This document shows positions 1,391 through 59,182 of a stretch of 64,000 nt of DNA, piece by piece. The stretch is from Dehalococcoidia bacterium (GTDB taxonomy: Bacteria; Chloroflexota; Dehalococcoidia; Lucifugimonadales; UBA1123). The position numbers were made by a program, and so were the translations under genes. The notes beneath the pieces were generated by a model. The model was given only the letters and a program-made list of their open reading frames with translations. It was not told the DNA's origin and searched no databases. The first letter of the stretch is position 1. Each line of letters begins with the position of its first letter. Where the stretch lies: assembly GCA_034420555.1 (NCBI GenBank), contig DAOULF010000060.1:58-64057 (forward strand), given 5' to 3'.

Positions 1391-1500
1391 TCGAACCTGT
1401 ATCAGCTTGGTCGGTAGGGGAGTCACCCCCATCCTAACCTTCCCCCATCAAGGGGGAAGGGAATTTTCTCGCCACAGGCAGCGCCGACTAAATTGGTACA
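1391..1500 (+). repeat. 110-bp REP/MITE-like element, long form, copy 1 (inverted partner at 59073-59182)
   Basis: The reverse complement of tcgaacctgtatcagcttggtcggtaggggagtcacccccatcctaaccttcccccatcaagggggaagggaattttctcgccacaggcagcgccgactaaattggta matches 59073-59182 with only about 3 mismatches. The core hairpin is CCTTCCCCC-atcaa-GGGGGAAGG. Confidence 0.8.
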
Positions 1501-5867: not shown

Positions 5868-7048
5868 TCTGTCGGCGTGTCGCGGATTTGGGCAAGGCAG
5901 ACGTAATGGCAGTCCTGGAAGCGAACATCACCTCCGAGAAGCGTTTCTCCGATCTTTGGGAACGCTCCATTGAACTGCGCCCCGACGTTGTGGATGGGGA
6001 CGGCAACAGGTACGAAGTCGTATTCCCGGGGGTCAGGAACCAGGCAGCCGGCCCCGACTTCAAGGGCGCGGTCCTCAGACGCGACGGTCGCACCTTCGGT
6101 GGCGACGTAGAGCTCCACCTGGAGCAGTCCGGCTGGAGGGCGCATGGCCATCATGCCGATCCAGCCTACGATGGCGTCGTTCTCCAGGTCGTTCTGAGAT
6201 TGGTGCGTAACCCCGATCATTTCACCGGCCCGCCCACGGCCACCGCGACATTTCCAGAGCGCGCCGCCGAATCCTCAAGCTTGCCGGAAATCTCGCCCTC
6301 CGACCTGGAAGAGTTGGGAGTACAGAGATTCCTGGCCAAGAGCGCGGGCTTCCATCTGGAACTCGACGCTGGCGCATCCCCTGACCAAATCGTGTACCAG
6401 GGCATGATGGAGGCGATGGGCTACGCGAGGAACCGCAAGCCGTTTCTCGCGCTGTCCAGGGCTGCGCCCCTGTCGCTGTTCACGCCCCTCAAGGACGAAC
6501 CGCGCCGGACAGCCGAGTTCGGAGTGTTCGCGGCGCTGGCGATTGTCGGAAATGTTCTTGAACGAGTCGCGTCTCCTGAGCGCGACCAGATTCGCAGGGT
6601 GGCTTCGATGCTCGGAGCACGCTCCCGCCTATCCGCGCGAGACTGGAGCATGTTCAGGGTCAGGCCGAGCGCAGATCCGGTCAATCGCATGAGGGCGATG
6701 GGGTTCATCCTGGCTTCCGGCTTGGGCGAAAGTCTCTCTGAGCGTATGCAAGCCGTGTTCGAGCGCGGCGGCGCGAACGGCCTGGTCAGGGTAGTCTCGG
6801 ACGCGCCGCATATTGGTCGCGGCTTCGCGCTTGTAATCGCGTCGAATGTTCTGCTGCCCTGTCTGTATGCGATACGCCCCTCCGAGGGAATCGTCTCCGA
6901 ATTTCAGAAGATGCCTTCACCACCCGGTGACTCGGTCACAAGGGGAATGGCGAATGTCCTCGGCGAGCGAATCAGGCCGGCGAACGCCGCGCAACATTCG
7001 GGGCTTCACGCGCTGGCGAAGTCGCGCTCCTGGCCGGGCCGCATTTAG
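5852..7048 (+). CDS. DUF2851-family protein
   Basis: The core NQAAGPDFKGAVLRRDGRTFGGDVELHLEQSGWRAHGHHADPAYDGVVLQVVL matches the conserved DUF2851 block (GPDF...VE(I/L)H...W..HGH..D..YD.V(I/V)L). The start could be ATG 5852, which overlaps the upstream gene, or ATG 5906. Confidence 0.7.
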   Translation: MARHIVCRRVADLGKADVMAVLEANITSEKRFSDLWERSIELRPDVVDGDGNRYEVVFPGVRNQAAGPDFKGAVLRRDGRTFGGDVELHLEQSGWRAHGHHADPAYDGVVLQVVLRLVRNPDHFTGPPTATATFPERAAESSSLPEISPSDLEELGVQRFLAKSAGFHLELDAGASPDQIVYQGMMEAMGYARNRKPFLALSRAAPLSLFTPLKDEPRRTAEFGVFAALAIVGNVLERVASPERDQIRRVASMLGARSRLSARDWSMFRVRPSADPVNRMRAMGFILASGLGESLSERMQAVFERGGANGLVRVVSDAPHIGRGFALVIASNVLLPCLYAIRPSEGIVSEFQKMPSPPGDSVTRGMANVLGERIRPANAAQHSGLHALAKSRSWPGRI

Positions 7049-7057
7049 GAGCGGACA

Positions 7058-7645
7058 TTAGAAGAGGGCGAGAAGTTCCCTCGCCTCCCTGATGACTGGC
7101 CTGTCGTAGATGCGGATGGGGTTGGCGACCTCCAGCGCTTTTTCCAGGTCGACGCGCGCTTCGACCTTCCTGCCCTCGTCCAGATGAACCTTCGCCCTCG
7201 CCACGTAGGTTCCGGCGTATTCAGGCTCCAGCTCGATGGCTTTGTCGAAGTCTTCCAGCGCCAGCGCCAGCCGCTCGTCGCCGTAGAACGCGAGCCCCCG
7301 CCGGTAGTACGCCCTGCCGAAGTCGGGCAGCTTTCTTATCACCAGGTCGAAGGCGGTGATGGCGTCGTCGAACTCCTGAACTTCAAGAAGCCTGACGGCG
7401 CGGCTGTACTCGAACAGCGCCGCCGTCTGGACCGTAGGAGTGGGTTCAGGTTCGGCTGTGGGTTCGGGTGTCGAGGTAGGCTCAGGTGTTGGCGCCGGTA
7501 CAGGCGTGGAGGTGGGCGCTGGCGTATGGGTTGGAACCGGGGTAGGCTCAGGCGTCGGTGTAGGCGTGGGTTCGGGGCTGGAACAGGCCAGAGCCAGAAC
7601 CATGAGTACGATTCCCGAAGCCAGAGTTGCGCTAATCTTGGTCAT
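7058..7645 (-). CDS. TPR-repeat lipoprotein with Pro/Thr-rich linker
   Basis: It has a signal peptide and lipobox ([11 protein letters not shown]), a ~50-aa PEPTPTPTP... low-complexity linker, and C-terminal TPR repeats ([33 protein letters not shown]). Confidence 0.75.
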
Positions 7646-7796
7646 TATGCTGATCTGTGAACCTCTTTTGCGAGATTTATCGTTTGCCGTTCAGCATAGC
7701 ATACGCGCGGGAGGCGGTAGGGGGTTTTCTCCGCGCCCCCAATGGAATACAGTATGCGGGACACTGAATCAACCTGGTTTACTCGAGGGAAGCGCC

Positions 7797-8309
7797 GTGA
7801 TTAGAACATTGGATGGAATTACACCCAGGATTCACCCGACCGCCTTCGTGAGCGAGGCGGCATACGTAATCGGAGACGTGGAAATTGGGGAAGGCTCGAG
7901 CGTCTGGCCCGGAAGCGTCATCCGGGGCGACATGGGTAAGATAACGATTGGCAAGTACACCTGCGTACAGGACAACTCGGTCGTCCACTGCGACACCGAC
8001 GCGACCATCGGCGACTACGTGGTCATAGGCCACCGCGTGGTGTGCCACGCGAAGAACGTCGGCGCCAGGACGCTGCTGGGCAACGGCGCAGTGGTCAACG
8101 ACGGCGTGGAGATAGGCGACGAGTGCGTCGTCGCCTCCGGCGCGGTCGTTCTGGACGACATGCAGGTGCCCGACCGCTCGATAGTCGTCGGTGTGCCGGG
8201 CCGCGTGCGCGGCCAGGTGCAGGACAGGCACCTGGAACTGGGCGAATACTTCAACAAGGTCTATGTTCTGAAGACGCAGCGCTACAAGAGGAACGGCGGA
8301 CTGGAGTAG
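7797..8309 (+). CDS. Gamma-carbonic-anhydrase-like / hexapeptide-repeat (YrdA/PaaY family) protein
   Basis: Left-handed beta-helix repeats (PRIHPTAFVSEAAYVIGDVEIGEGSSVWPGSVIRGD...). The first 357 nt of the tracked ORF (7440-7796) is the Gly/Val-rich antisense shadow of the Pro/Thr gene, so GTG 7797 is preferred as the start. Confidence 0.8.
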   Translation: MIRTLDGITPRIHPTAFVSEAAYVIGDVEIGEGSSVWPGSVIRGDMGKITIGKYTCVQDNSVVHCDTDATIGDYVVIGHRVVCHAKNVGARTLLGNGAVVNDGVEIGDECVVASGAVVLDDMQVPDRSIVVGVPGRVRGQVQDRHLELGEYFNKVYVLKTQRYKRNGGLE

Positions 8310-8326
8310 TCCTTCGGATTCGGGCG

Positions 8327-10003
8327 TCACATCCTGTCCGGCGCGCTCATGCCCATTAGCGACAGGCAGCGCGCGAGCGCTATTCTGGACGCCAGGCACA
8401 GCCGCAGTCTCGCCTTGGTTAGCTCCTCTTCGCCTCCCACTGTCGAAATCACGCGGCACTGCTGGTAGAACCAGTGGAACGCCGTCGCCAACTCCTGCGC
8501 GTAGTGGGGCAGGTGGTGTACCTCCAGGTTGGTCGCCATGACCTCGACGAGTTCGGGCAATTGCACTATCTTGCGGATCAGCGCCAGCTCCGCCTCATGG
8601 TCCAGCAGCGACAGGTCGGCGTCCCCGAACTCGATATTGCGCTCCCTTGCGCCGGCGATGATGCTCGCTATGCGCGCGTGGGCGTACTGGACGTAATAGA
8701 CGGGGTTGTCGGAGGACTGGCGGGAGGCGAGTTCCAGGTCGAACTCCATCTGCGTCTCGGCGGCGCGCGACAGGAAGAAGTAGCGGCAGGCGTCCGCCCC
8801 TACCTGGTCAACCAGGTCGTCAACCGTGATTATGTCCCCGGAGCGTTTCGATAGGCGCACCAGTTCGTCGCCCTGCTTGAATGTGACCATCTGGTAGATC
8901 ATCAGGGTGAGCCGTTCGGGGTCAACGCCCATCGCTGAGACGGCGGCCTTCATGCGGCTGACGTGGCCCTGGTGGTCCGCGCCCCATATATCCACAACTC
9001 GCTCGAAGCCGCGCTCGACGAACTTGTTGTGGTGGTAGGCGACGTCGGAGGCGAAGTAGGTGGGCGCGCCGTTGGAGCGTATCAGCACCGCGTCGTTCTC
9101 GGCGCCGAGTTCGGTGGCCGCGAACCACACCGCGCCGTCGCGCTCCGCGCGGTAGCCGCGCTCGTCTATCAGCGACATCACGCCGTCGAAGCCGCCCTCG
9201 GAATAGAGGCCGCGCTCTCTGAACCAGACGTCGTAGCCCACGCCCAGCCTGTCCAGCGAGTCCCTGATGGAGTCCACCATCGTTTCGAGCGCGACTTCGC
9301 CTATCGCGGCGGTGGCCTGTTCGGGGTCCATGTCCAGGTACCTGTCGCCGTGCCTGTCCCTTATCGCACGCGCCAGGTCGTTCATGTACTCGCCATGGTA
9401 GCCGTCCTCCGGAATCTCGGCCTGCCTGCCGCACTGCTGGAGGTAGCGCGCGTATGCGGTCTGGTAGAACAGTTCCATCTGGGTGCCGCCGTCATTGACG
9501 TAGTATTCGCGCTGAACGTCGCATCCCGCAGCCTCAAGCGCGTTGGCGAGCGCGCTTCCAAGGACCGCGCCCCTCGCGTGTCCCACGTGAACAGGGCCGG
9601 TTGGGTTCACGCTGACGAACTCCACCTGTACGCTCTCTCCGCCCCCGATGCCGGAATTGCCGAAAGTATCATCCTGTTCAATCACGCGGTCCACCTGGGA
9701 CTGGAGCCACCCCTCATCCAGTGAGAAGTTCACGAATCCAGGGCCCGCCACCCAGACTTTACCCACAATCTCAGAGTCGGGAAGCGCCGCGACCATCGCC
9801 TCGCCGATGGCCCTGGGGTTCATCCTCATCGGGCGGGCGAGCTTCATCGCAAGGCTGCACGAAAAGTCGCCGTTCTCGGCCTTCTGCGGCCTCTCTATGG
9901 ACAGGTCGGTAATTTCTACTTCCGGTAGCTGTTCGGTTGATTGGGCCGTATCGAGGGCAGTCTTGACGATTTCGGATATGTGTCTTCTGACTGATGTGGA
10001 CAT
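8327..10003 (-). CDS. argS: Arginine--tRNA ligase
   Basis: 558 aa. It has a class-I HIGH-type motif (NPTGPVHVGHARG), a KMSKS-like LSKRSGD, and the C-terminal ArgRS anticodon-binding (DALR) region ending in a terminal Met. Confidence 0.95.
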   Translation of the reverse strand: MSTSVRRHISEIVKTALDTAQSTEQLPEVEITDLSIERPQKAENGDFSCSLAMKLARPMRMNPRAIGEAMVAALPDSEIVGKVWVAGPGFVNFSLDEGWLQSQVDRVIEQDDTFGNSGIGGGESVQVEFVSVNPTGPVHVGHARGAVLGSALANALEAAGCDVQREYYVNDGGTQMELFYQTAYARYLQQCGRQAEIPEDGYHGEYMNDLARAIRDRHGDRYLDMDPEQATAAIGEVALETMVDSIRDSLDRLGVGYDVWFRERGLYSEGGFDGVMSLIDERGYRAERDGAVWFAATELGAENDAVLIRSNGAPTYFASDVAYHHNKFVERGFERVVDIWGADHQGHVSRMKAAVSAMGVDPERLTLMIYQMVTFKQGDELVRLSKRSGDIITVDDLVDQVGADACRYFFLSRAAETQMEFDLELASRQSSDNPVYYVQYAHARIASIIAGARERNIEFGDADLSLLDHEAELALIRKIVQLPELVEVMATNLEVHHLPHYAQELATAFHWFYQQCRVISTVGGEEELTKARLRLCLASRIALARCLSLMGMSAPDRM

Positions 10004-10027: not shown

Positions 10028-11086
10028 CTATCTCTTGTTGACGTGTATGGAGGGCGCATCTTTATCAGCGATTATCTCCCCGATAACCACGCGCGTCTGG
10101 ACGCTATGGGATTCCAGAGCCGACAGCAGCGCGCCGGTCTTTTCGTCGGAGACCGCTATCAGCAGTCCGCCGGAGGTCTGGGCGTCGGCGAGAAGGATCT
10201 TCTGCACGTCGGTTATGGAGTCGTCCCACGTGACGTCGGCTTCCATGGAATCGAGATTTCGATGGGTTCCGCCCGGGGCGACGCCGCTTTCGGCGAGTTC
10301 TGACGCGCCCGAGATGAACGGGATCGCGTCGAAGTTCAGCGACGCTCCCACGCCGCTCGCTCGCGTCATGCCTCTGAGGTGTCCCAGAAGGCCGAAGCCG
10401 GTGACGTCAACGCAGGCGTGGACTCCTACTTCATTCATCGCATAGGAGGCGTCATCGTTCAGTTGGCTCATTATGCTAACCGCCGTGTTGAGAACGTCTT
10501 CGGGCGCGACTCCCTGCTTGGCGGCTGTGGTGATTATCCCCGTGCCGATGGGCTTGGTGAGCACAAGATTGTCGCCCGGCTTCGCGCCCGCGTTGGTCAC
10601 GTGGTCGCCGGGGCGTACCACGCCCGTTACCGACAGGCCGTACTTGGGCTCCTCGTCGTCAACCGTGTGACCGCCGACTATCAGGACGCCCGCCTCGCGC
10701 GCCTTGTCCGCCCCGCCCACCAGGATATTGCCCAGCAGGTCCTTCGGGAGCGCGACCGGGAAGCCCACGATGTTCAGCGCGGTCAGCGGCCTTCCGCCCA
10801 TCGCGTACACGTCGCTCAGCGCGTTCGCCACCGCTATCTGGCCGAACGAATACGGGTCGTCAACTATCGGCGGGAAGAAGTCCACGGTCTGGATGAGCGC
10901 GGTGTCATCGTCCATGCGATAGACGGCGGCGTCGTCCCCGGTGTTGACGCCGACCAGCAGATTCGGGTCGGAAACCGGAGGGAGCTTGCTCAGGACCTGT
11001 CCCAGGTCCTCGGGGCTGAACTTGGACGCTCAACCCGCGCAGCTTGCGAGTTCGGTCAGCCGGATGTTTTCGTGCGTGGTGGTCAA
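10028..11086 (-). CDS. selD: Selenide, water dikinase SelD, selenocysteine-containing (in-frame UGA at 11032-11030)
   Basis: The tracked ORF (10028-10915) begins mid-protein (DDTALIQTVDFFPPIVDDPYSFGQIAVANALSDVYAMGG). Reading upstream in frame gives (TTG)TTTHENIRLTELASCAG-U-ASKFSPEDLGQVLSKLPPVSDPNLLVGVNTGDDAAVYRM, which is the SelD G(C/U)xxK active-site loop with UGA at the Cys/Sec position. AGGAG lies 9 nt upstream of TTG 11086. Confidence 0.85.
10992..11010 (-). promoter_or_regulatory. Candidate bacterial SECIS hairpin for selD
   Basis: On the mRNA, 19 nt after the UGA: AGGACCU-GGGAC-AGGUCCU (7-bp stem), with possible outer pairing UCAG/CUGA. Confidence 0.4.
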
Positions 11087-11290
11087 GGTACGGCTCCTGG
11101 ATTCTTTGTATGCGGAATTATAGAGCATTCCCGACATGGTTGCGCAAACCTGTATCAACCCGGTCGGAAGCATCTGTCATAAATTAGCCTTTATGTCATA
11201 CAGGTGACGTTCCAGGTGAGATTCCAATTGGAACAGGAGGCGAGTCACGTGGAAAGTGACCTGTAAACACCTGTCGTTAGCTTTGGATCG

Positions 11291-11395
11291 GAAATTTTTC
11301 GGTCGGATGAGGGATCATTGATAAGTTCTAGATTATATAATATAGGCACTTTTGTTCTGCGATGTGGGTATTGTAGCACAGTGGACGGAGGGTAG
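11291..11395 (+). repeat. ~100-bp non-coding element A, shared with 32948-33045
   Basis: Four collinear conserved blocks occur at the same spacing in both copies: TTTTTCGG(G)TCGG, CATTGATAA, GTTCTGC and GGTATTGTAGCA. Confidence 0.55.
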
Positions 11396-11491
11396 GGCAA
11401 GGTTGGCGCGCGTCCTCTCTTGGTTCGTGGGTATGATAAGATATGCCCCGATTATTCCGCCTGTGAGAATCGCACACGCCCAGCGTGCCGA

Positions 11492-11499
11492 TGTATAAT
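11492..11499 (+). promoter_or_regulatory. Possible extended -10 promoter box (TGTATAAT) for the island operon
   Basis: A perfect TGnTATAAT lies 28 nt upstream of ATG 11527 in an AT-rich leader. No good -35 box is present. Confidence 0.3.
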
Positions 11500-11526
11500 T
11501 CCCACATATTTACGCGGAGTGAACCT

Positions 11527-14500
11527 ATGACCACTGTCAACAGACCCAACAGAGACGCGCTTAATGATGCGCTGGACATATACCGCGACGCTATGCGTCC
11601 GTTCATCGTTCGAAACCTTCGAAGTGTTCAGGGCGCGCAGGTAAGCCAGTTGATAAGTCGTTCACTCCAATTCCGGACGAGCGCTCCCCGGAATCCCAAT
11701 GACCTTGAAGCCTCGATAGACATAAACGACTTTCCCTTGTTGATCAAGGATTACTGGCGCAACGTATTCTCATCAGTGTTCGCTTCCGATATGACCGTGC
11801 AAAACGCGCTCTGGCAGATTAAAGAAGCTCGCAATAAGGCCGCTCATCCAGCGCCCCAGGACATAGATCCAGAGTTCACCAGGGCGCACTTTTTCCATAT
11901 ATCAGATGTGCTGGGAAAGATGAATGCGTCCCAGGAAAAGCAAGCCGTTGAAAACATAAGAGAACGGCTATTCAGCAGTCCCGCTCCCGTAACTCCCTCA
12001 TTGACTGAACCAGAACCTGAAACCGACACCGAACCTGTTCAGCGGCAGCCTCGCACGTCCGGCGACCTTACGCCCTGGCGCGAGGTGATACAGCCCAACT
12101 CCGACGTTTCACTTGGAACGTTCCAGGAATCCGAGTTCGCGGCGAACTTGCAGCAGGTGCATGATGGACGCGCCGACGCCACCCAGTACGGCAATCCCGT
12201 CAGTTTCTTCGATCACACCTATATCACTCCCGGTATCAGAACCCTGCTTCTCAACACCCTCAGACGTATCGCGGGCAACGGTGGCGACCCGGTGATACAG
12301 ACCAAGACCGGATTCGGCGGCGGCAAGACTCACAGCCTCATTGCCCTCTACCACCTCGTCAACAATATCGGTGCGCTCACCAACCCCACGCAAGGCCGAG
12401 ACTCCCAGCAAACCAGCTCTGAGATACGCGCTATCGTCGAAGAAGTCGGACTCGATCCTGACCAGGGAATGGACGCCAGCGTCGCCGTGCTGGTTGGTAC
12501 CTACCTCTCTCCCACGGACACCAACGTGACCGACAGCGGCGACCCACTCAACACCCTCTGGGGCGAAATGGCATACCAGTTGGGCGGACAGGAAGCCTAC
12601 GACATCATTGGCGACGCGGCCAGGCGCGGCGTAGCGCCCGGCGAGAGGCTGCTCAACCAACTGTTCCAACACGTCGGCCCCTGTGTCATTCTCATAGACG
12701 AACTCGTGGCCTACGTGAGAAACGCCGGCGAAGCCCAGGACAACATCTATACATTCATCCAGAATCTCACAGAGTCGGTTAACGGCAGTGACCATGTTGC
12801 GCTTGTAGTTACCCTGCCTGAAAGCGCGGCGGAAGCCGGAGGCGATGCTGGACTCTACGCGCTCAACAGGCTCGACAGCATCCTCGGACGCATCGAAGCT
12901 ATCTGGGAGCCTTTGGAAGTCCATGAGGCGTTCGAGGTTGTTCGCCGTCGTCTCTTCGGAACCGAGATTGACCAGGCCGAACGGGACAGATCATGTGAGG
13001 CATTCTCCAGGATATACAGCAGGTCGCGACGTGACTACCCACAGGAGGCTGGGGAGCAGAACTATCTTGAACGTATGAAGGATTGCTATCCCATACACCC
13101 GGAGATATTCGACAGGCTCTATTCCGACTGGTCTTCTATCCATCGCTTCCAGCGCACCCGCGGCGTCCTGCGTATGCTGGCCCACTGTGTCAGCCGGCTC
13201 TACCTGGACGGCGACTCTTCTCCCCTGATAATGCCGGCGGATCTCCCACTTGACGATCCTGGTCTGAGCGGCGAATTCATCAGCATACTCGGCGAACAGT
13301 GGCGGCCGGTCCTCACCGAAGCCGACACCGACGGCTCCAGGACCGACATGATTGACCGCTCCTCGCAGAGATTTGGCAGATTCGGCGTATCCAGGCGTCT
13401 GGCGCGCGCCATCGTACTCGGCAGTGCGCCGGGCGGCGCTGTCAGGGGAATAGACACGAGCCGCATTCACCTCGCGACCGTACAGCCAGGACACGGCGTC
13501 CCCGTTTACAACGAAGCCCTGGGTCAGATGACCGGAGATCTCTACCACCTATACCACAGCGACGGCAGATACTACTTCCACGTCGAGGAAAATCTGAACA
13601 AGGTCGTCGCTGACCGCGCCGACTCCATGAGCGACCGAGAGATACACGACGAAATAGACAGGGTGATGAAAGAAGCCGTCGGACGCAGATCCGACGTCAT
13701 CATCTTCCCTCGAAACTCCGCCGAAGTCCCCGATACTGACTCCGTCCGACTCGTTATCCTTCCTTCTGGCAAGTCGCTCTCCAACCGCGCCAGCGAACCC
13801 GACGATGCTACTCCTGAGATACTGAACATCCTCCAGAACAGAGGCGACGCCTCTCGTGTTCGTAAGAATACCTTGCTCTTCCTCGTCGCCCGAAAGGACG
13901 AGGTTCGCAACCTGTATAGAGCAGTCCGAAACTACCTTGCCTGGACTTCGATCCAGAGCGGCGACCGCCGCATCGAAAGCCTCGAGGGTGACCGCCGAAG
14001 ACAGGTGGTTGACGGCGTGAGACAGTACGAATCCGAAGTCCGCGCCGCGCTCGTCAATGCCTACCGCTGGACCATGGCTCCGTACCAGCCGGATCCGCAG
14101 AATTCGTCCAGCTTCGACATGAACCCCTGGTCCATAAACGCGCGGGACACCGGCGAGATAGTCGAGAGCGCCTTCGACAAGTTCATTGAGGAAGAGGCGC
14201 TCGTTGATAACCTGTCCCCGGTCGCTCTCGACGCCATGCTCCAGCAGTATATCTGGAAATCCGGCCACGACCATGTGAGCGTTGAACAACTCTGGGATAT
14301 GATGACGGCCAACGTATATATGCACCGCCTGCGCAACAAGTCCGTCCTGGTGGACTGCATACGGCGCGGTATCCCCGAAGCCGCGTTCGGGTATGCCGAG
14401 GGCTACGACGCCAACGCGGACACCGATGAGTACCACGATATGCGCTTCGACGAGCCCCTGGATGAAGGGCTGTTCAGCATATCCGACCTGGAACACGGCA

Positions 14501-14880
14501 TTCTGATCAACCCCGAGATTGCTCGCCTCGTCAAGGAAGAACAGGCCAGCCGCCAGCGGGACGACCAACCTGAGCCGACACCCGCTGAACCCGGCGTTCC
14601 GGCAGCCCCGCCCCAACCTCCTGTTGTGGACACTGTACCTCCGAGCGCGCCCCCCGCCGTCACCCAAATAGTAGTGAACAAGACCTTCCAGAGCGAAATG
14701 GACCTGAACGACATCAGCCTCCTCAACGAGGAGATAATCCGAAACCTCGACGCTGACGGAGTGCAGATAACGGTCAGCGTAACCGTGTCCGCCACCAAGC
14801 AGGACGGCTTCTCCGAGAACATCGCCCGCTCCATCCGCGAGAACAGTGTCCAACTCGGCTTGGACCTCGAGCAGATATGA
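11527..14880 (+). CDS. DUF499-family P-loop ATPase with N-terminal Swt1-like HEPN domain
   Basis: 1117 aa from ATG 11527, with GGAG 8 nt upstream. The N-terminus (ALNDALDIYRDAMRPFIVRNL...WQIKEARNKAAHP) carries the Rx4H HEPN motif. Walker A is TKTGFGGGKTHSL and Walker B-like is CVILIDELVAY. The overall length, the Pro-rich linker (PEPTPAEPGVPAAPPQPP) and the small C-terminal domain are typical of DUF499 proteins. Confidence 0.8.
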   Translation: MTTVNRPNRDALNDALDIYRDAMRPFIVRNLRSVQGAQVSQLISRSLQFRTSAPRNPNDLEASIDINDFPLLIKDYWRNVFSSVFASDMTVQNALWQIKEARNKAAHPAPQDIDPEFTRAHFFHISDVLGKMNASQEKQAVENIRERLFSSPAPVTPSLTEPEPETDTEPVQRQPRTSGDLTPWREVIQPNSDVSLGTFQESEFAANLQQVHDGRADATQYGNPVSFFDHTYITPGIRTLLLNTLRRIAGNGGDPVIQTKTGFGGGKTHSLIALYHLVNNIGALTNPTQGRDSQQTSSEIRAIVEEVGLDPDQGMDASVAVLVGTYLSPTDTNVTDSGDPLNTLWGEMAYQLGGQEAYDIIGDAARRGVAPGERLLNQLFQHVGPCVILIDELVAYVRNAGEAQDNIYTFIQNLTESVNGSDHVALVVTLPESAAEAGGDAGLYALNRLDSILGRIEAIWEPLEVHEAFEVVRRRLFGTEIDQAERDRSCEAFSRIYSRSRRDYPQEAGEQNYLERMKDCYPIHPEIFDRLYSDWSSIHRFQRTRGVLRMLAHCVSRLYLDGDSSPLIMPADLPLDDPGLSGEFISILGEQWRPVLTEADTDGSRTDMIDRSSQRFGRFGVSRRLARAIVLGSAPGGAVRGIDTSRIHLATVQPGHGVPVYNEALGQMTGDLYHLYHSDGRYYFHVEENLNKVVADRADSMSDREIHDEIDRVMKEAVGRRSDVIIFPRNSAEVPDTDSVRLVILPSGKSLSNRASEPDDATPEILNILQNRGDASRVRKNTLLFLVARKDEVRNLYRAVRNYLAWTSIQSGDRRIESLEGDRRRQVVDGVRQYESEVRAALVNAYRWTMAPYQPDPQNSSSFDMNPWSINARDTGEIVESAFDKFIEEEALVDNLSPVALDAMLQQYIWKSGHDHVSVEQLWDMMTANVYMHRLRNKSVLVDCIRRGIPEAAFGYAEGYDANADTDEYHDMRFDEPLDEGLFSISDLEHGILINPEIARLVKEEQASRQRDDQPEPTPAEPGVPAAPPQPPVVDTVPPSAPPAVTQIVVNKTFQSEMDLNDISLLNEEIIRNLDADGVQITVSVTVSATKQDGFSENIARSIRENSVQLGLDLEQI

Positions 14881-14933
14881 TACAATCGGCCCGAAGTTCG
14901 CGCTGGACGGTTGACGCAGGGGAATAGAAACAG

Positions 14934-15242
14934 ATGATGATGCGGGAAGAACGTGTTAGCTCCATGGAAGGACCCTATGATCATCTGGCTACCAGGGCTG
15001 ACGTGCAAGAACTGCGCGGCGAGATGAGAGCCATCACTGCCGAACTCGTCTCTGAAATCCGCGCCGCCACTGAGCGGCTGGAGAGCCAGATCGAATCTTC
15101 CAAGCAGGAACTTCTCGCCGAATTTGCATCCGAAATCCGCGCCTCTGAAATCCGCATCATCAAGTGGGGTGTGGGTATGGCGACCGGCGTCGCTCTCGGA
15201 ATGCTCGCCTCCATCGCGGCCATGCTCAGATTACTCGCCTGA
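14934..15242 (+). CDS. Small coiled-coil protein with C-terminal transmembrane anchor (DUF1640-like)
   Basis: 102 aa. It has heptad-like LATRADVQELRGEMRAITAELVSEIRAATERLESQIESSKQELLAEF and then a hydrophobic tail (WGVGMATGVALGMLASIAAMLRLL). The start is ambiguous (three consecutive ATGs). Confidence 0.55.
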   Translation: MMMREERVSSMEGPYDHLATRADVQELRGEMRAITAELVSEIRAATERLESQIESSKQELLAEFASEIRASEIRIIKWGVGMATGVALGMLASIAAMLRLLA

Positions 15243-15300
15243 TTTCCCGCTCTGTCCGATATAACAGCGTCCAGCTTGACCTGAGCATGGAGATGATTTA

Positions 15301-15516
15301 ATGAGTGGCCCAGTGAAGTATATTGTCGTAATCGAGAATGGCCCTACCAGCTACGGCGCGTATGTTCCCGACCTTCCCGGATGCGTCGCCGTCGCTGATA
15401 CCAAAGAAGATGTCTGCAAGCTGATACGCGAGGCCATCCAACTCTACGCGGAAGCTCTCCAAGAAGAAGGACTTCCATTGCCCTCGCCCCAGTCCTATGA
15501 ACTCATACAGGTGTAG
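15301..15516 (+). CDS. HicB-like (UPF0150) small protein, no DNA-binding domain, no adjacent HicA
   Basis: 71 aa. YIVVIENGPTSYGAYVPDLPGCVAVADTKEDVCKLIREAIQLYAEALQEEGLPLP is the canonical HicB N-terminal fold signature. The stop lies 4 nt before the methyltransferase ATG. Confidence 0.7.
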   Translation: MSGPVKYIVVIENGPTSYGAYVPDLPGCVAVADTKEDVCKLIREAIQLYAEALQEEGLPLPSPQSYELIQV

Positions 15517-15520
15517 GCTA

Positions 15521-18358
15521 ATGTCTCAACCCGCATACCGTAAGAAACTCATTGAAGTTGACCTACCCCTCGACGACATAAACCGCGAATCCGCCCGAGA
15601 AAAGTCCATCCGCCACGGACACCCCTCCACTCTCCACCTCTGGTGGGCGCGACGCCCTCTAGCCGCCTGCCGCGCCGTCATATTCGCCAGCATGGTGGAC
15701 GACCCGTCATCCTGTCCCGACGAATTCCCAGACGAAGAATCGCAGCGGGTGGAGCGTGAACGACTCCATGACATGATCAGAGAACTCGTCAAGTGGGAAA
15801 GCACGGACGAGAGCAAGCCCGATGTGCGTAAACTCATCGCCGACGCGCGGTACGAAGTAGCCCGCTCCGTAGCCCGCTCGCGAAACGAGACGCCGCCCGA
15901 CAAAGACAGTTCCGCCACGGTCCTCGCCTACCTGAACGACAAGGCGCTGCCCATCTACGATCCCTTCGCAGGTGGCGGCTCGATACCGCTGGAAGCCCAG
16001 CGCCTCGGACTACGCGCCGTAGCATCGGACCTCAACCCTGTCGCCGTTCTCATTAACAAGGCTCTTATCGAACTCCCGCCCAAGTTCAATAACCAACCCC
16101 CCGTAAACCCCGACGCCGACCCGATGGGTATGTTCACTGGCAAGCACGTTGGCAGGGGAAAGAACAGAAAACCCGAACAGGTAGCGTGGCGCGGAGCCGC
16201 CGGACTCGCCGACGACATCCGCTACTACGGACGCTGGATGCGAAAGAAAGCACTCGAGCGAATAGGTAACCTCTACCCAAAGGCCAAACTGCCCGACGGT
16301 GGGGAAGCCACCGTGATTGCATGGCTGTGGGCGCGGACTGTTCCGTGTCCTAATCCTGCCTGCGGTATTCAGATGCCCTTGATACGAACGTTTCAAGCCT
16401 CAAGGAAAGCAAGCAATCAGCACTGGATAAAGCCAGTAGTATGCCGCGAGACCAATCAAATATCATTCGCTGTCCAGAACCACAGTAAGGGAGTGCCAGA
16501 AAATGGGACTGTGAATCGCAACGGTGCAATTTGTATTGCTTGTGAGACAACTGCTCCGCTTTCGTATGTACGTGAACAGTCCAGAGCCGGGAAAATGAGT
16601 GAACGTATGACGGCCATAGTAGCAGAGGGAGATCGCAAACGACTGTTCCTCTCTCCCAATGACGAACATACCCAGATGGCAATGGACGCCAAACCTGATT
16701 GGCGTCCAAACGGGAGACTGCCTGAGCGAGCATTAGGCTTTAGAGTACAAAGATATGGATTTACTAACTGGCATCAGCTATTCACTGAACGCCAGTTAAC
16801 GGCACTGACTGCTTTTAGCGATCTAGTGCTGGAGGTTCACAAACAGATTATACGGGATGGATCAAGCAACGAATATGCGGACACTGTCTCTACTTATCTG
16901 TCTCTTGCTATTGGGAAAATGGCGGACTATTGTTCTAATTTGTCGTCATGGATCTTGCCGAGTGAAAACGTGAGAAACGTTTTCACTCGGCAAGCAATCC
17001 CAATGATATGGGACTTCGCTGAAGCTAATCCCTTCTCAAATTTGGCACAGAACCAACGATCTCGTGTAGAGCAAATTGCCGAGACCGTTGAGCGTCTTCC
17101 TGTCAATGTGTCAGGTGGTCAGGTATATCAAGCTGACGCCACAACAACTATATATGCTAAAGGAGGGCCTGTAATTGTCACTGATCCTCCTTACTATGAC
17201 AACATCGCTTATGCTGACCTCTCCGATTTCTTCTACGCTTGGCTCCGCCCTCTGCTTCGTGATATGTATCCGCAGTTGTTGTCAGGTATAGCGACACCAA
17301 AAAACGAGGAGATGATAGCCGCGTCTCGCTTTGATGATCCAAGAGAACGTTTTGAAGATTTGATGAGTAAAGCATTGAAGCTAATACGGGAACGGTGTTC
17401 GCCTGAATTTCCATCTTCTATATTCTACGCATATAAACAGCAAGAGCATCAAAAGGGAGGCACAGCTTCGACTGGCTGGGAAACAATGCTGGCTGCGTTG
17501 ATTAATGCTGGTTTTCAGATAATAGGAACTTGGCCCATGCGTACGGAACGGCAAGGCCGACTCCGTGAGATTGGTTCTAACGCCCTCGCGTCCTCAGTTG
17601 TCTTAGTCTGCCGCCCCCGATCCGAAAACGCCCCCACTGCCACCCGCCGCGAGTTCTTAAACGCTCTTCAGAGCGAACTGTCCGCCGCGCTCGACCACCT
17701 TACCCGCGAAAGCCACATCGCGCCCACCGATCTCGCCCAAGCCGCCATCGGCCCGGGCATGGAAATCTACTCACGATACAGTTCGGTCAACACTCTGAGT
17801 GGTGAACCTGTCACCGTCCGCGAGGCCCTCGTCGCCATCAATCAGGCCATCGAGAACTACTTTGAGACCCAGGAGGGAGAGATAGACTCCGCAAGCCGCT
17901 TCTGCGTCAACTGGCTCAAGGAACACGGCTACACTGAGGGCGATTACGGCGAGGCGGAGGTCCTCTCACAAGCGATGAACGTCGCCATTGAATCCGACTC
18001 CATAGGCGGCCTTCTTACCGCTGAGGCGGGCAGAGTGAAACTCCGCCGCATAGACGAATACGGCAATCCCGATAGGCCCCTCTCCACTGGCATGACTGCT
18101 TGGGAAGGCTGCATGAGAATGGCCTACCACCTCAACCGCGAGTATGGTGAGGGAATAGCCGGCGCCGCCAACGTCGCTCGCCAGATGTCTGGCGTAGGCG
18201 CGGATGTGGACTCCGTAGAACGCCTCGGCCGCATCCTCTACAACCACTACGACCGCAACAACGACTCACCTAACGCTGTCATATTCAACAACCTTGTGAC
18301 AAGTTGGCAGGACATCCTCACCCAGATGCAGGAAGCGCAGAGCGAAAGGCTGTTGTAA
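15521..18358 (+). CDS. DUF1156-domain DNA methyltransferase with zinc ribbon (N6-adenine/N4-cytosine, DPPY type)
   Basis: 945 aa from ATG 15521. The N-terminal DUF1156 signature is KLIEVDLPLDDINRESAREKSIRHGHPSTLHLWWARRPLAACRAVIFA. The SAM motif is IYDPFAGGGSIPLEA, the Cys pairs are CPNPAC...CIAC, and the catalytic motif is VIVTDPPYYDNIAYADLSDFFYAWL. Confidence 0.85.
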   Translation: MSQPAYRKKLIEVDLPLDDINRESAREKSIRHGHPSTLHLWWARRPLAACRAVIFASMVDDPSSCPDEFPDEESQRVERERLHDMIRELVKWESTDESKPDVRKLIADARYEVARSVARSRNETPPDKDSSATVLAYLNDKALPIYDPFAGGGSIPLEAQRLGLRAVASDLNPVAVLINKALIELPPKFNNQPPVNPDADPMGMFTGKHVGRGKNRKPEQVAWRGAAGLADDIRYYGRWMRKKALERIGNLYPKAKLPDGGEATVIAWLWARTVPCPNPACGIQMPLIRTFQASRKASNQHWIKPVVCRETNQISFAVQNHSKGVPENGTVNRNGAICIACETTAPLSYVREQSRAGKMSERMTAIVAEGDRKRLFLSPNDEHTQMAMDAKPDWRPNGRLPERALGFRVQRYGFTNWHQLFTERQLTALTAFSDLVLEVHKQIIRDGSSNEYADTVSTYLSLAIGKMADYCSNLSSWILPSENVRNVFTRQAIPMIWDFAEANPFSNLAQNQRSRVEQIAETVERLPVNVSGGQVYQADATTTIYAKGGPVIVTDPPYYDNIAYADLSDFFYAWLRPLLRDMYPQLLSGIATPKNEEMIAASRFDDPRERFEDLMSKALKLIRERCSPEFPSSIFYAYKQQEHQKGGTASTGWETMLAALINAGFQIIGTWPMRTERQGRLREIGSNALASSVVLVCRPRSENAPTATRREFLNALQSELSAALDHLTRESHIAPTDLAQAAIGPGMEIYSRYSSVNTLSGEPVTVREALVAINQAIENYFETQEGEIDSASRFCVNWLKEHGYTEGDYGEAEVLSQAMNVAIESDSIGGLLTAEAGRVKLRRIDEYGNPDRPLSTGMTAWEGCMRMAYHLNREYGEGIAGAANVARQMSGVGADVDSVERLGRILYNHYDRNNDSPNAVIFNNLVTSWQDILTQMQEAQSERLL

Positions 18359-18370
18359 GCGGACAGTTGA

Positions 18371-18415
18371 GGCTTCACCCCCATCCTAACCTTCCCCCAT
18401 CAAGGGCGAAGGGAC
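18371..18415 (+). repeat. REP-like hairpin element (short form of the 1391-1500 family)
   Basis: ggcttcacccccatcctaaccttcccccatcaagggcgaagggac lies between the methyltransferase stop and the GIY-YIG start. Confidence 0.7.
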
Positions 18416-18417
18416 TA

Positions 18418-18783
18418 ATGCGAACAGGTGGACAGTTGAACACATTCACCCTCAAATACCAGCTTGAGAGGGACATGCGCCCGTTCCATCGCGCGCAGGT
18501 CCAAAGCCTGCCCCGCGACAGGCGCGGAGTCTATGCGCTCTGGCTCCCATCCGGAGACATCCCCGAATGTCTCTACGTCGGCATATCAACCACCTGCATA
18601 CGCCGCCGCCTGCTGGACCACCTCTCCAACGAAACCAACCCCGAACTGCGTCGGCAGTTGTATATGTTCAGCGAGACCGTCCGCTTCTCCACCGCGTTCA
18701 CGGACGGTGACGAGCAGACGCGCGAACTGGAGGCGGCGCTGGTGTCGGACTGGCAGCCCTTGTGCAATGTTCTTCTGCGATGA
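18418..18783 (+). CDS. Stand-alone GIY-YIG nuclease-domain protein (121 aa)
   Basis: From ATG 18418: RRGVYALW (GIY), CLYVGIS (YIG), the conserved Arg cluster IRRRLLDH, and a distal TRELEAALVSDWQPLCN (Glu...Asn) follow the GIY-YIG catalytic layout. The upstream part of the tracked ORF (18304-18417) only translates the REP element. Confidence 0.65.
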   Translation: MRTGGQLNTFTLKYQLERDMRPFHRAQVQSLPRDRRGVYALWLPSGDIPECLYVGISTTCIRRRLLDHLSNETNPELRRQLYMFSETVRFSTAFTDGDEQTRELEAALVSDWQPLCNVLLR

Positions 18784-59072: not shown

Positions 59073-59182
59073 TATACCAATTTAGTCGGCGCTGCCAGTG
59101 GCGAGAAAATTCCCTTCCCCCTTGATGGGGGAAGGTTAGGATAGGGGTGACTCCCCTACCGACCAAGCTGATACAGGTTCGA
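59073..59182 (-). repeat. 110-bp REP/MITE-like element, long form, copy 2 (inverted partner of 1391-1500)
   Basis: tataccaatttagtcggcgctgccagtggcgagaaaattcccttcccccttgatgggggaaggttaggataggggtgactcccctaccgaccaagctgatacaggttcga is the reverse complement of copy 1, with about 3 mismatches. Confidence 0.8.

Follow-up and report, generated by a model that had tools for sequence, protein, structure and literature searches.

A candidate helicase-less variant of the Hma/Type-1 BREX-related systems carries a predicted GIY-YIG nuclease

Organization of the locus

We analyzed a 64,000-nucleotide stretch of the Dehalococcoidia bacterium contig DAOULF010000060.1, referred to below as the window, which carries between 11.5 and 18.8 kb an island of five co-directional open reading frames (ORFs) on the + strand. 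ORFs and flanks are as described in the initial annotation, which had placed the five genes between selD and a hydantoinase-type gene. Gene 1 (11527–14880, 1117 residues) encodes a homologue of HmaC with HEPN_Swt1 and DUF499 domains, gene 2 (14934–15242, 102 residues) a coiled-coil protein with a C-terminal transmembrane helix, and gene 3 (15301–15516, 71 residues) a short HicB-like antitoxin. Four nucleotides separate the stop codon of gene 3 from the ATG of gene 4 (15521–18358, 945 residues), which encodes a homologue of HmaB, a DUF1156 DNA methyltransferase of the N6-adenine type. The last gene, gene 5 (18436–18783, 115 residues), encodes a standalone predicted GIY-YIG nuclease whose fold was recognized by AlphaFold2 modeling and Foldseek comparison.

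HmaC and HmaB are components of Hma (helicase, methylase, ATPase), a system that received its name in 2021 on the basis of 1,638 operons of three genes from 26 phyla (Payne et al. 2021, PMC8565338). A 2026 survey renamed these loci "BREX-related" (BR) systems that center on DUF499; of these, Type-1 BR combines the ATPase with a DUF1156 N6-methyltransferase and a Swi2/Snf2 helicase (PMC12839542). The helicase subunit, HmaA, combines a Snf2 helicase with a PD-(D/E)XK nickase at its C terminus (PMC11232893). The pairing of DUF499 with DUF1156 and the HEPN fusion are thus already known, and the GIY-YIG protein in the place of HmaA is what has no description in the literature searched.

HmaB, the methyltransferase, and HmaC, the ATPase

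By profile comparison, gene 4 is a full-length HmaB homologue: the PADLOC HmaB models PDLC00660 and PDLC00661 match it at E = 6.6e-291 and 1.7e-290 over its full length (residues 14–949), and Pfam reports DUF1156 (E = 4.6e-31) and MethyltransfD12 (E = 2.6e-5). The methyltransferase motif I, DPFAGGG (15959–15979, residues 147–153, + strand), and motif IV, DPPY (17183–17194, residues 555–558, + strand), flank an insert of ~400 residues that contains a CxxC motif. Nested here is a hypervariable target-recognition region (about 16420–17170, residues ~300–550, + strand) with a GC content of 0.473. A scan with gene 4, taking one genome per species, retrieved 80 loci. Residues 300–550 are 42–58% identical to those of most relatives compared, and residues 300–450 are 68–80% identical to those of the nearest relative, locus L001, while most other HmaB segments reach 76–96% identity in the nearest relatives. 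Over the hypervariable segment, loci L023 and L054 have no DNA homology to the window. Such a hypervariable, low-GC segment is typical of a specificity domain being exchanged and suggests that the region has been swapped.

Gene 1 is, by the same kind of comparison, a full-length HmaC homologue in which an N-terminal HEPN domain is fused to a DUF499 ATPase of the ORC/Cdc6-like AAA+ type. It matches HEPN_Swt1 (E = 1.5e-8, above the gathering score) and DUF499 (E = 4.8e-27) in Pfam, and the PADLOC HmaC model PDLC00662 (E = 6.7e-234) over profile positions 3–935 of 941. The HEPN motif RNKAAH (11830–11847), the Walker A motif GFGGGKT (12310–12330), and the Walker B motif VILIDE (12685–12702) all lie on the + strand. 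The start codon ATG 11527 and the GGAG Shine-Dalgarno sequence before it recur in five relatives, so that a longer, GTG-initiated ORF from 11485 is probably unused. The window's HmaC is only about 30% identical to that of the canonical clade. HEPN-fused DUF499 proteins occur in 1370 taxa (PMC12839542), and we rejected the fusion as a hallmark of the variant described here because it is also found in the helicase-bearing clade. In the closest relative, L001, HmaC (6172–9596) is broken into ORFs of 937 and 196 residues, owing either to a frameshift in a pseudogene or to an error of long-read assembly; similar fragmentation affects HmaB and HmaC in loci L081 and L092.

The initial annotation had read the island as a candidate defense-type, restriction–modification (RM)-like module, which is borne out by the full-length homology of its two large proteins to HmaB and HmaC. 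Its DUF499, HEPN, HicB, DUF1156, and GIY-YIG assignments also hold against Pfam, NCBIfam, and PADLOC profiles, in the case of gene 5 by way of structure. It had further regarded the combination of DUF499 and DUF1156 as lacking a demonstrated mechanism and the architecture as unrecognized. Since HmaC and HmaB match components of the named Hma system over their full length, the pair itself is known, under the names Hma and Type-1 BR, and the HmaA of that system defends against phage T4; the part that stands is that the GIY-YIG variant is undescribed in the literature searched. HmaB, the DUF1156 methyltransferase, and HmaC, the HEPN-fused DUF499 ATPase, were both found in the window; the Snf2 helicase was not.

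We also compared the window proteins with the NCBIfam equivalogs for anti-phage DUF499 and DUF1156 proteins, which correspond to Type-2 BR (NF042962 and NF042963), and rejected this assignment: the scores were 152.5 bits against a cutoff of 1200 and 146.5 bits against a cutoff of 1000, and DUF3780 had no match in any of the five proteins. Judged by these scores, the equivalogs are a different, more distant branch.

Gene 5 encodes a predicted GIY-YIG nuclease

The sequence of gene 5 matches GIY-YIG profiles weakly (Pfam E = 0.005; NCBIfam Cho E = 3e-7), and its similarity to any solved enzyme is marginal at this level (best E = 0.012). Two of the seven homologues scanned (P0136 and P0265) pass the Pfam threshold for PF01541, and some homologues have precomputed PF01541 matches. 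The AlphaFold2 model, with a confidence score (pLDDT) of 88.7, has UvrC GIY-YIG domains as its top Foldseek matches. The comparison with 1yd6 gave E = 6.5e-5, a probability of 1.0, a TM-score of 0.82 normalized to the target, and an r.m.s. deviation of 2.2 Å; the model superposes less well on the defense nuclease PD-T4-3 and on I-TevI. Seven residues are invariant in 32 aligned homologues: Gly37 and Tyr39, the Gly and Tyr of GIY; Tyr53 and Gly55, the Tyr and Gly of YIG; and Arg64, Glu105, and Asn117. In the window's own protein, the Tyr of GIY stands in a GVY motif, the Arg in a run RRR, and the Glu in LEA (18526–18735). The gene 5 profile aligns to the Arg39/Glu76/Asn88 region of Thermotoga maritima UvrC. 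As modeled, gene 5 looks like a GIY-YIG-fold protein and a predicted nuclease with an active-looking site.

The homologues of gene 5 begin with MN(T/P/L)F, which in the window corresponds to the TTG at 18436, provided with an AGGTGG Shine-Dalgarno sequence. The start is likely this codon, giving 115 residues, rather than the ATG at 18418, giving 121; of the initial description of gene 5, the GIY-YIG assignment is thus upheld by the fold, and the length of 121 residues probably has to be shortened. Ratios of nonsynonymous to synonymous substitution rates of 0.10–0.24 against six relatives, similar to those of HmaB, indicate that gene 5 is under purifying selection. The protein consists of the catalytic core and one conserved N-terminal helix (Lys13, Tyr14, Leu16, and Glu17 when numbered from the ATG at 18418), without a DNA-binding or recognition domain.

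The gene 5 family is small, with members of about 105–130 residues. Its close relatives form 142 clusters in a large protein database, most of them unannotated, and identity to gene 5 is 50–85% among the 120 clusters listed. Of 1.84 billion representatives searched exhaustively with the profile, 322 matched at E ≤ 1e-3 and 56 at E ≤ 1e-10. No match was found in phage and plasmid collections; a profile scan of JGI metagenome contigs was uninformative, with 109 pattern matches and no confirmation of any by tblastn. A distant small GIY-YIG member (profile E = 1.5e-11) is present in loci L090 (3447–3794) and L091 (1635–1982), where a GmrSD-type gene and DndB flank it on the two sides and a faint PAPS-reductase-like gene is found upstream. 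Small GIY-YIG nucleases of this family may be reused as effectors in further defense loci based on modification.

HmaC, HmaB, and the GIY-YIG protein recur as a set without HmaA

HmaA was searched for with a profile built from 21 proteins carrying SNF2-rel_dom, Helicase_C, and NOV_C domains, as checked with Pfam, at a threshold of E ≤ 0.01. There was neither a match nor a remnant in the six frames of the 64-kb window, which agrees with the absence of a helicase claimed in the initial annotation. The clade of the window's HmaB comprises 43 of the 80 loci, whose HmaB proteins share at least about 48% identity with that of the window; across these 43 loci, the profile matched only a divergent HKD-Snf2 helicase in locus L017. 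Likewise, apart from L017, the gene 5-bearing loci have no helicase in flanks of up to 10 kb on each side. By comparison, loci with an HmaB 40–47% identical to the window's have an HmaA of ~1170–1200 residues directly before HmaB, in the order A-B-C. A neighbor-joining tree of HmaB separates the loci linked to gene 5 and those linked to HmaA into distinct clades. One locus outside the window's clade, L019, has an HmaB that is 60% identical and branches apart; it has the order A-B-C and no gene 5.

Homologues of gene 5 are found in 34 loci, all inside the window's clade and all at the 3′ end of the HmaC/HmaB pair; no HmaA-bearing locus among the 80 has one. The gene is present in every locus of the clade that has HmaC, HmaB, and enough downstream sequence: the nine loci that are devoid of it are two at contig ends and seven with an orphan HmaB without HmaC. 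Most often the genes are arranged as HmaC-[cargo]-HmaB-[cargo]-gene 5, and gene 5 keeps its 3′ position when the order is B-C-gene 5 (L010 and L031) or when cassettes are inserted. In the reverse direction, four gene 5 homologues, including the weakest among the matches listed and a more divergent one (E = 4e-18), were used as queries, and all seven loci found through them have a HEPN-DUF499 gene and a DUF1156 gene directly upstream. The proposal that the GIY-YIG gene stands in the helicase's place holds, and these comparisons show the architecture to be conserved and not a product of chance. In loci L082–L086, the three genes directly adjoin one another or overlap at their stop and start codons. 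Clustering all ORFs of at least 80 residues from the 43 loci left only HmaB, HmaC, and gene 5 as conserved, together with antisense shadow ORFs; neither an additional conserved component nor a different helicase family emerged in the variant clade, and both possibilities were rejected.

The hosts are metagenome-assembled genomes labeled Dehalococcoidia/Chloroflexota, Candidatus Poribacteria, and Candidatus Latescibacterota, mostly of sponge type; the variant spans at least three phyla and was found only in uncultured genomes. Chromosomes that carry it include OZ253472.1, OZ243964.1, OZ241923.1, and OY730226.1. One Vicinamibacterales locus ends at a contig end. The genes that flank the island in the window recur at none of the loci, and the flanks differ at every locus; the module therefore moves as a unit.

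This distribution bears on the possibility that the island is a decayed canonical Hma from which hmaA was deleted and to which an unrelated GIY-YIG gene is merely adjacent. HmaA is indeed absent from the window, the 17 bp between the end of gene 5 and the convergent amidohydrolase gene could be a deletion edge, and a hicB without hicA shows that the locus has been rearranged. The loss of HmaA is nevertheless not decay, because the same HmaC/HmaB/gene 5 set without HmaA recurs in the 34 loci, in different contexts in Chloroflexota, Poribacteria, and Latescibacterota. The purifying selection and invariant catalytic residues of gene 5, a window free of HmaA remnants in all six frames, and the separate clade of gene 5-linked HmaB proteins also speak against decay, which we regard as extremely improbable.

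Gene 5 could alternatively be an independent passenger, either a selfish homing-type GIY-YIG endonuclease or a separate single-gene defense nuclease. Hma loci are hotspots for unrelated defense genes (10.1101/2024.01.29.577857; PMC11232893), and the distant small GIY-YIG member between GmrSD and DndB sits in another modification-type locus. Gene 5 also has a weak PADLOC match to the single-gene candidate PDC-S14 (E = 2.7e-4), and cassettes can part it from HmaB (L002, L007, and L018). Within the close family, however, the co-occurrence is complete in both directions, the 3′ position is fixed, and the gene overlaps or abuts hmaB in minimal loci and is mutually exclusive with HmaA. Homing GIY-YIG enzymes carry a DNA-binding or targeting domain, which the model of the 115-residue protein does not show, and the phage and plasmid collections hold no copies of it. 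A passenger is, on this evidence, unlikely.

A Snf2-type translocase might also act in trans from elsewhere in the genome, leaving the GIY-YIG protein as an auxiliary or back-up nuclease. In 21% of Type-1 BR systems the helicase has no fused nuclease and separate nucleases lie nearby, the fusion being present in 79% of taxa (PMC12839542). In addition, L017 (2456–13686) is a hybrid that joins an HKD(PLDc_2)-Snf2 helicase of 963 residues, in the style of Type-2 BR, to HmaC, HmaB, and a gene 5 homologue of 39% identity. Such a locus may be an evolutionary intermediate in which the helicase and the GIY-YIG protein occur together. Canonical hma genes are operonic, though, and no helicase was found in the 64-kb window or in the 10-kb flanks of the other gene 5 loci. 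Moreover, the nearby nucleases given by the survey, for helicase-bearing systems only, are PD-(D/E)XK, HEPN, HNH, and TOPRIM, and GIY-YIG is not among them (PMC12839542). We assign a helicase in trans a low probability, similar to that of a passenger.

Finally, the module could be an epigenetic or DNA-repair device unrelated to defense, in which a UvrC/Cho-like nickase and an ORC-like ATPase act on host DNA. The N-terminal domains of UvrC and Cho are the closest matches of gene 5 in sequence and structure, and orphan HmaB copies exist. Seven of these belong to the window's clade (L028, L030, L033, L006, L012, L035, and L041) and have neither HmaC, gene 5, nor HmaA; those of L028, L030, and L033 are closely related paralogues on one Poribacteria chromosome, OY282383.1. 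The orphans may be stand-alone methyltransferases or remnants. A role outside defense is countered by the strong, full-length homology to defense-associated HmaB and HmaC, the HEPN RNase fused to HmaC, the toxin–antitoxin and other defense cargo embedded in the loci, the variable genomic context and hypervariable specificity region, and the patchy distribution across phyla, and appears highly improbable.

Embedded cargo between hmaC and hmaB

Embedded foreign genes, many of them defense systems, occur in about 63–66% of Hma loci (10.1101/2024.01.29.577857). By their lack of conservation, genes 2 and 3 are such variable cargo between hmaC and hmaB and not core components. The suggestion that these two small proteins are adaptors did not hold, and we rejected it, as neither is conserved across the HmaB-derived loci: gene 3 recurs at the hmaC–hmaB position only in L001 and L002, there as part of an intact hicAB pair, and no gene 2 homologue is present in any of the 80 loci. 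The initial annotation had proposed to count, in the neighborhoods of DUF1156 homologues, the genes found in place of the helicase; the GIY-YIG gene is borne out by its 34 loci, and the HicB-like gene, confined to two loci, and gene 2, found in none, drop out.

The match of gene 3 to HicB_lk_antitox (E = 2e-12) spans profile positions 1–62 of 123, that is, the N-terminal half only. L001 and L002 carry, directly 5′ of a hicB whose product is 91–93% identical to gene 3, a hicA gene of 66–67 codons at the same position. A tblastn search of the window with the L002 hicA found none (best E = 0.39), and gene 3 is therefore an orphaned antitoxin. DNA homology between the window and L001 covers 11486–14881 and 15300–18781 and skips 14882–15299, an arrangement from which it would appear that hicA was replaced by a cassette carrying gene 2. 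Direct repeats on the two sides of gene 2 were sought as a sign of insertion; the search yielded no more than a 27-nt coiled-coil repeat inside the gene and an inverted repeat of 15 nt, which is weak.

Gene 2 has only weak CCDC90-like and DUF2730 matches in Pfam, below the cutoffs, but belongs to a real family of 13 homologues with 47–71% identity. Coiled-coil/transmembrane proteins of this kind are encoded in L087 (6001–6366), L088 (6001–6378), and L089 (2144–2455). In two of the three contexts examined, the gene lies directly upstream of a DNA methyltransferase gene, one of the N6_N4_Mtase family (1080 residues) and one a C5 DNA_methylase (346 residues). In the third, a YopA_M-like ORF comes next, and a convergent MmeI-like methyltransferase/restriction endonuclease lies two genes away. 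The gene 2 family may be an unrecognized accessory of RM-like loci; alternatively, gene 2 may be a toxin partner that took the place of hicA beside hicB. The L087 genome (3.78 Mb) is closely related to the window's, with ArgS 88% and SelD 89% identical, and its selD-adjacent site holds the gene 2-like gene, the 1080-residue N6_N4 methyltransferase, a DUF7689 protein, and a protein of >933 residues. This different methyltransferase island at the same site marks it as a defense-island hotspot in the window's lineage.

Other cargo was observed elsewhere in the set. In L002, two genes are inserted in the HmaB–gene 5 interval (12936–13653); the second encodes a protein that begins MRFVDTNVLIYAV and may be PIN/VapC-like. 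L081 carries an NYN gene (6458–7129) in the HmaC–HmaB interval and, after gene 5, a SIR2_2 gene (10510–11013). A 511-residue P-loop protein and a 169-residue ORF stand between HmaC and gene 5 in L010 (16348–18353), and L031 has a second HmaB-like methyltransferase (7196–9727).

Upstream region, flanking genes, and repeats

The island is preceded by ~440 bp of non-coding DNA (11090–11526), rightly described earlier as AT-rich, with a GC content of 0.478 against 0.592 for the window. DNA homology between the window and the closest locus, L001, begins at 11486. The element TGTATAAT (11493–11500), 27 nt 5′ of the hmaC start codon, is conserved in L001 and L002 and sits exactly where the inter-locus homology begins. 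The arrangement GGAG-N(7-9)-ATGACCAC is conserved across all six aligned sequences, and TGCTA(A/G)AAT is found further upstream in the more distant relatives L003, L023, and L054. In a scan with consensus promoters and terminators, the counts were not above those of shuffled controls, no site fell in the upstream region, and TGTATAAT was not flagged. Its conservation suggests that the upstream region probably holds the module's own promoter, and the module seems to travel with this extended -10-like promoter.

Upstream, the island is flanked by a SelD-like AIRS gene (10028–11095) and argS, both on the − strand, and downstream by the convergent amidohydrolase gene, also on the − strand. The SelD-like frame reads on upstream through an in-frame TGA at about 11031–11033, in the context ...LTELASCAG*ASKFSPEDL..., at the catalytic Cys/Sec position of selenophosphate synthetase; the window's SelD is, from this context, probably selenocysteine-containing. 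The two other large ORFs of the window, of 905 and 1096 residues, encode CarboxypepD_reg and VWA proteins.

The spacer between HmaB and gene 5 contains a dispersed, partly palindromic REP-like repeat of 39 nt, CACCCCCATCCTAACCTTCCCCCATCAAGGG[C/G]GAAGGGA, which is not part of the system. Its three copies in the window, with none expected by chance, are at 1424–1462 (+), 18376–18414 (+), and 59111–59149 (−), and related copies occur at unrelated positions in the Dehalococcoidia loci L003, L023, and L054.

Discussion

That the three genes hmaC, hmaB, and gene 5 form a helicase-less variant architecture is, in our view, very likely. The fuller interpretation, which we favor with moderate confidence, is that the island represents an anti-phage module of three components, mobile and RM-like, a variant of Hma/Type-1 BR with a GIY-YIG protein in the place of HmaA.

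Several points weigh against it. Taken alone, the gene 5 protein of the window scores 17.5 bits against a gathering cutoff of 22.6 for PF01541. Seven HmaB genes of the window's clade stand without both HmaC and gene 5. In L017, gene 5 and a helicase–nuclease coexist, so that the replacement is not absolute. The search for HmaA covered the window and flanks of up to 10 kb, and a helicase of this type may be encoded elsewhere in these genomes. The defense function of the variant is itself a prediction from homology: Halomonas meridiana HmaA alone protects Escherichia coli from T4, and overexpression of HmaB gave T4 no escape from HmaA (PMC11232893). As HmaA suffices and HmaB gives no escape, the RM-like role of HmaB and HmaC is itself only a proposal.

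The window shares with Hma/Type-1 BR the full-length HmaB and HmaC homologues, the HEPN-fused ATPase, a same-strand operon with embedded genes, and an HmaB in which DUF1156 is combined with a nested target-recognition region bearing a zinc ribbon. It differs in having no HmaA, that is, no Snf2 helicase or PD-(D/E)XK nuclease, in carrying a 115-residue GIY-YIG protein at the 3′ end, and in its gene order, C-B-G instead of A-B-C. Type-3 BREX, with BrxC, the PglXI/BrxXI methyltransferase, the BrxHII helicase, PglZ, and others, is considered the evolutionary parent framework of these systems and has in common with the window an ORC/STAND-type ATPase, an N6-methyltransferase with a nested target-recognition region, and methylation-based self discrimination (PMC12839542), the last being predicted for the window. 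Unlike Type-3 BREX, the window has no PglZ, BrxA, BrxB/F, or helicase, and consists of three core genes including a small candidate effector nuclease. Genes 2 and 3 resemble the embedded genes and hicAB modules of Hma loci in their same-strand position between hmaC and hmaB, but the window has no hicA and a coiled-coil/transmembrane gene in its place.

GIY-YIG restriction nucleases are known among Type II enzymes of the Eco29kI/Cfr42I type. With these, with PD-T4-3 (PDB 9u75), and with the N-terminal nickase domain of UvrC and Cho, gene 5 shares the fold and the residues Tyr, Tyr, Arg, Glu, and Asn. It differs from the restriction and defense nucleases in having no recognition domain, and from the Type II enzymes in its strict linkage to an AAA+ ATPase and a large methyltransferase instead of a simple Type II methyltransferase. 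The main texts of PMC8565338, PMC11232893, and PMC12839542 make no mention of GIY-YIG, and neither does the preprint 10.1101/2024.01.29.577857, which does not discuss HicB either; in supplementary files of PMC12839542, GIY-YIG occurs only as letters inside a sequence alignment. The two papers found to name both DUF499 and GIY-YIG do so only in unrelated passages. Nowhere in the literature searched, whose coverage is incomplete so that an earlier description is possible, is GIY-YIG linked to DUF499, DUF1156, or Hma.

A mechanism can be proposed along the following lines. HmaB would methylate its own motif in host DNA, at N6-adenine as judged from its DPPY motif, and HmaC, alone or with HmaB, would bind DNA devoid of the mark. 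ATP-bound HmaC would then recruit or license the GIY-YIG subunit to nick or cut the unmarked DNA, the subunit thereby supplying the nickase function of canonical HmaA. The HEPN RNase of HmaC could serve as a second-line abortive-infection effector, as a back-up role of this kind has been proposed for Type-1 BR systems (PMC12839542). We consider the chances of this model being right as a whole to be about even. A bolder and more tentative proposal is that HmaC, HmaB, and the GIY-YIG protein might be a self-contained, translocase-free restriction system driven by nucleoside triphosphates. On this view, the ORC/Cdc6-like AAA+ sensor and the DUF1156 methyltransferase would together license the action of a minimal GIY-YIG nickase, devoid of further domains, on unmethylated DNA, and HmaB and HmaC would be a recognition machine in their own right and not accessories of HmaA. 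The ~110–125-residue GIY-YIG family, with its distant member in a GmrSD/DndB/PAPS-reductase locus, would then more generally provide an interchangeable effector cartridge for modification-based defense systems.

Hma/BR systems have been reported in thousands of taxa, in which only HmaA has been shown to act, and one study suggested that HmaB and HmaC are possibly dispensable. A clade that keeps HmaB and HmaC under selection, drops HmaA, and gains a GIY-YIG protein points to HmaB and HmaC as the conserved recognition core, with an exchangeable effector. That the variant came up only in uncultured genomes, and in no phage or plasmid collection, may explain why surveys based on RefSeq overlooked it, and it would escape detection rules that require HmaA. 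In its compact form, about 6.6 kb in L082–L086, it would offer a simpler system for studying how DUF499/DUF1156 proteins discriminate DNA, a question shared with BREX.

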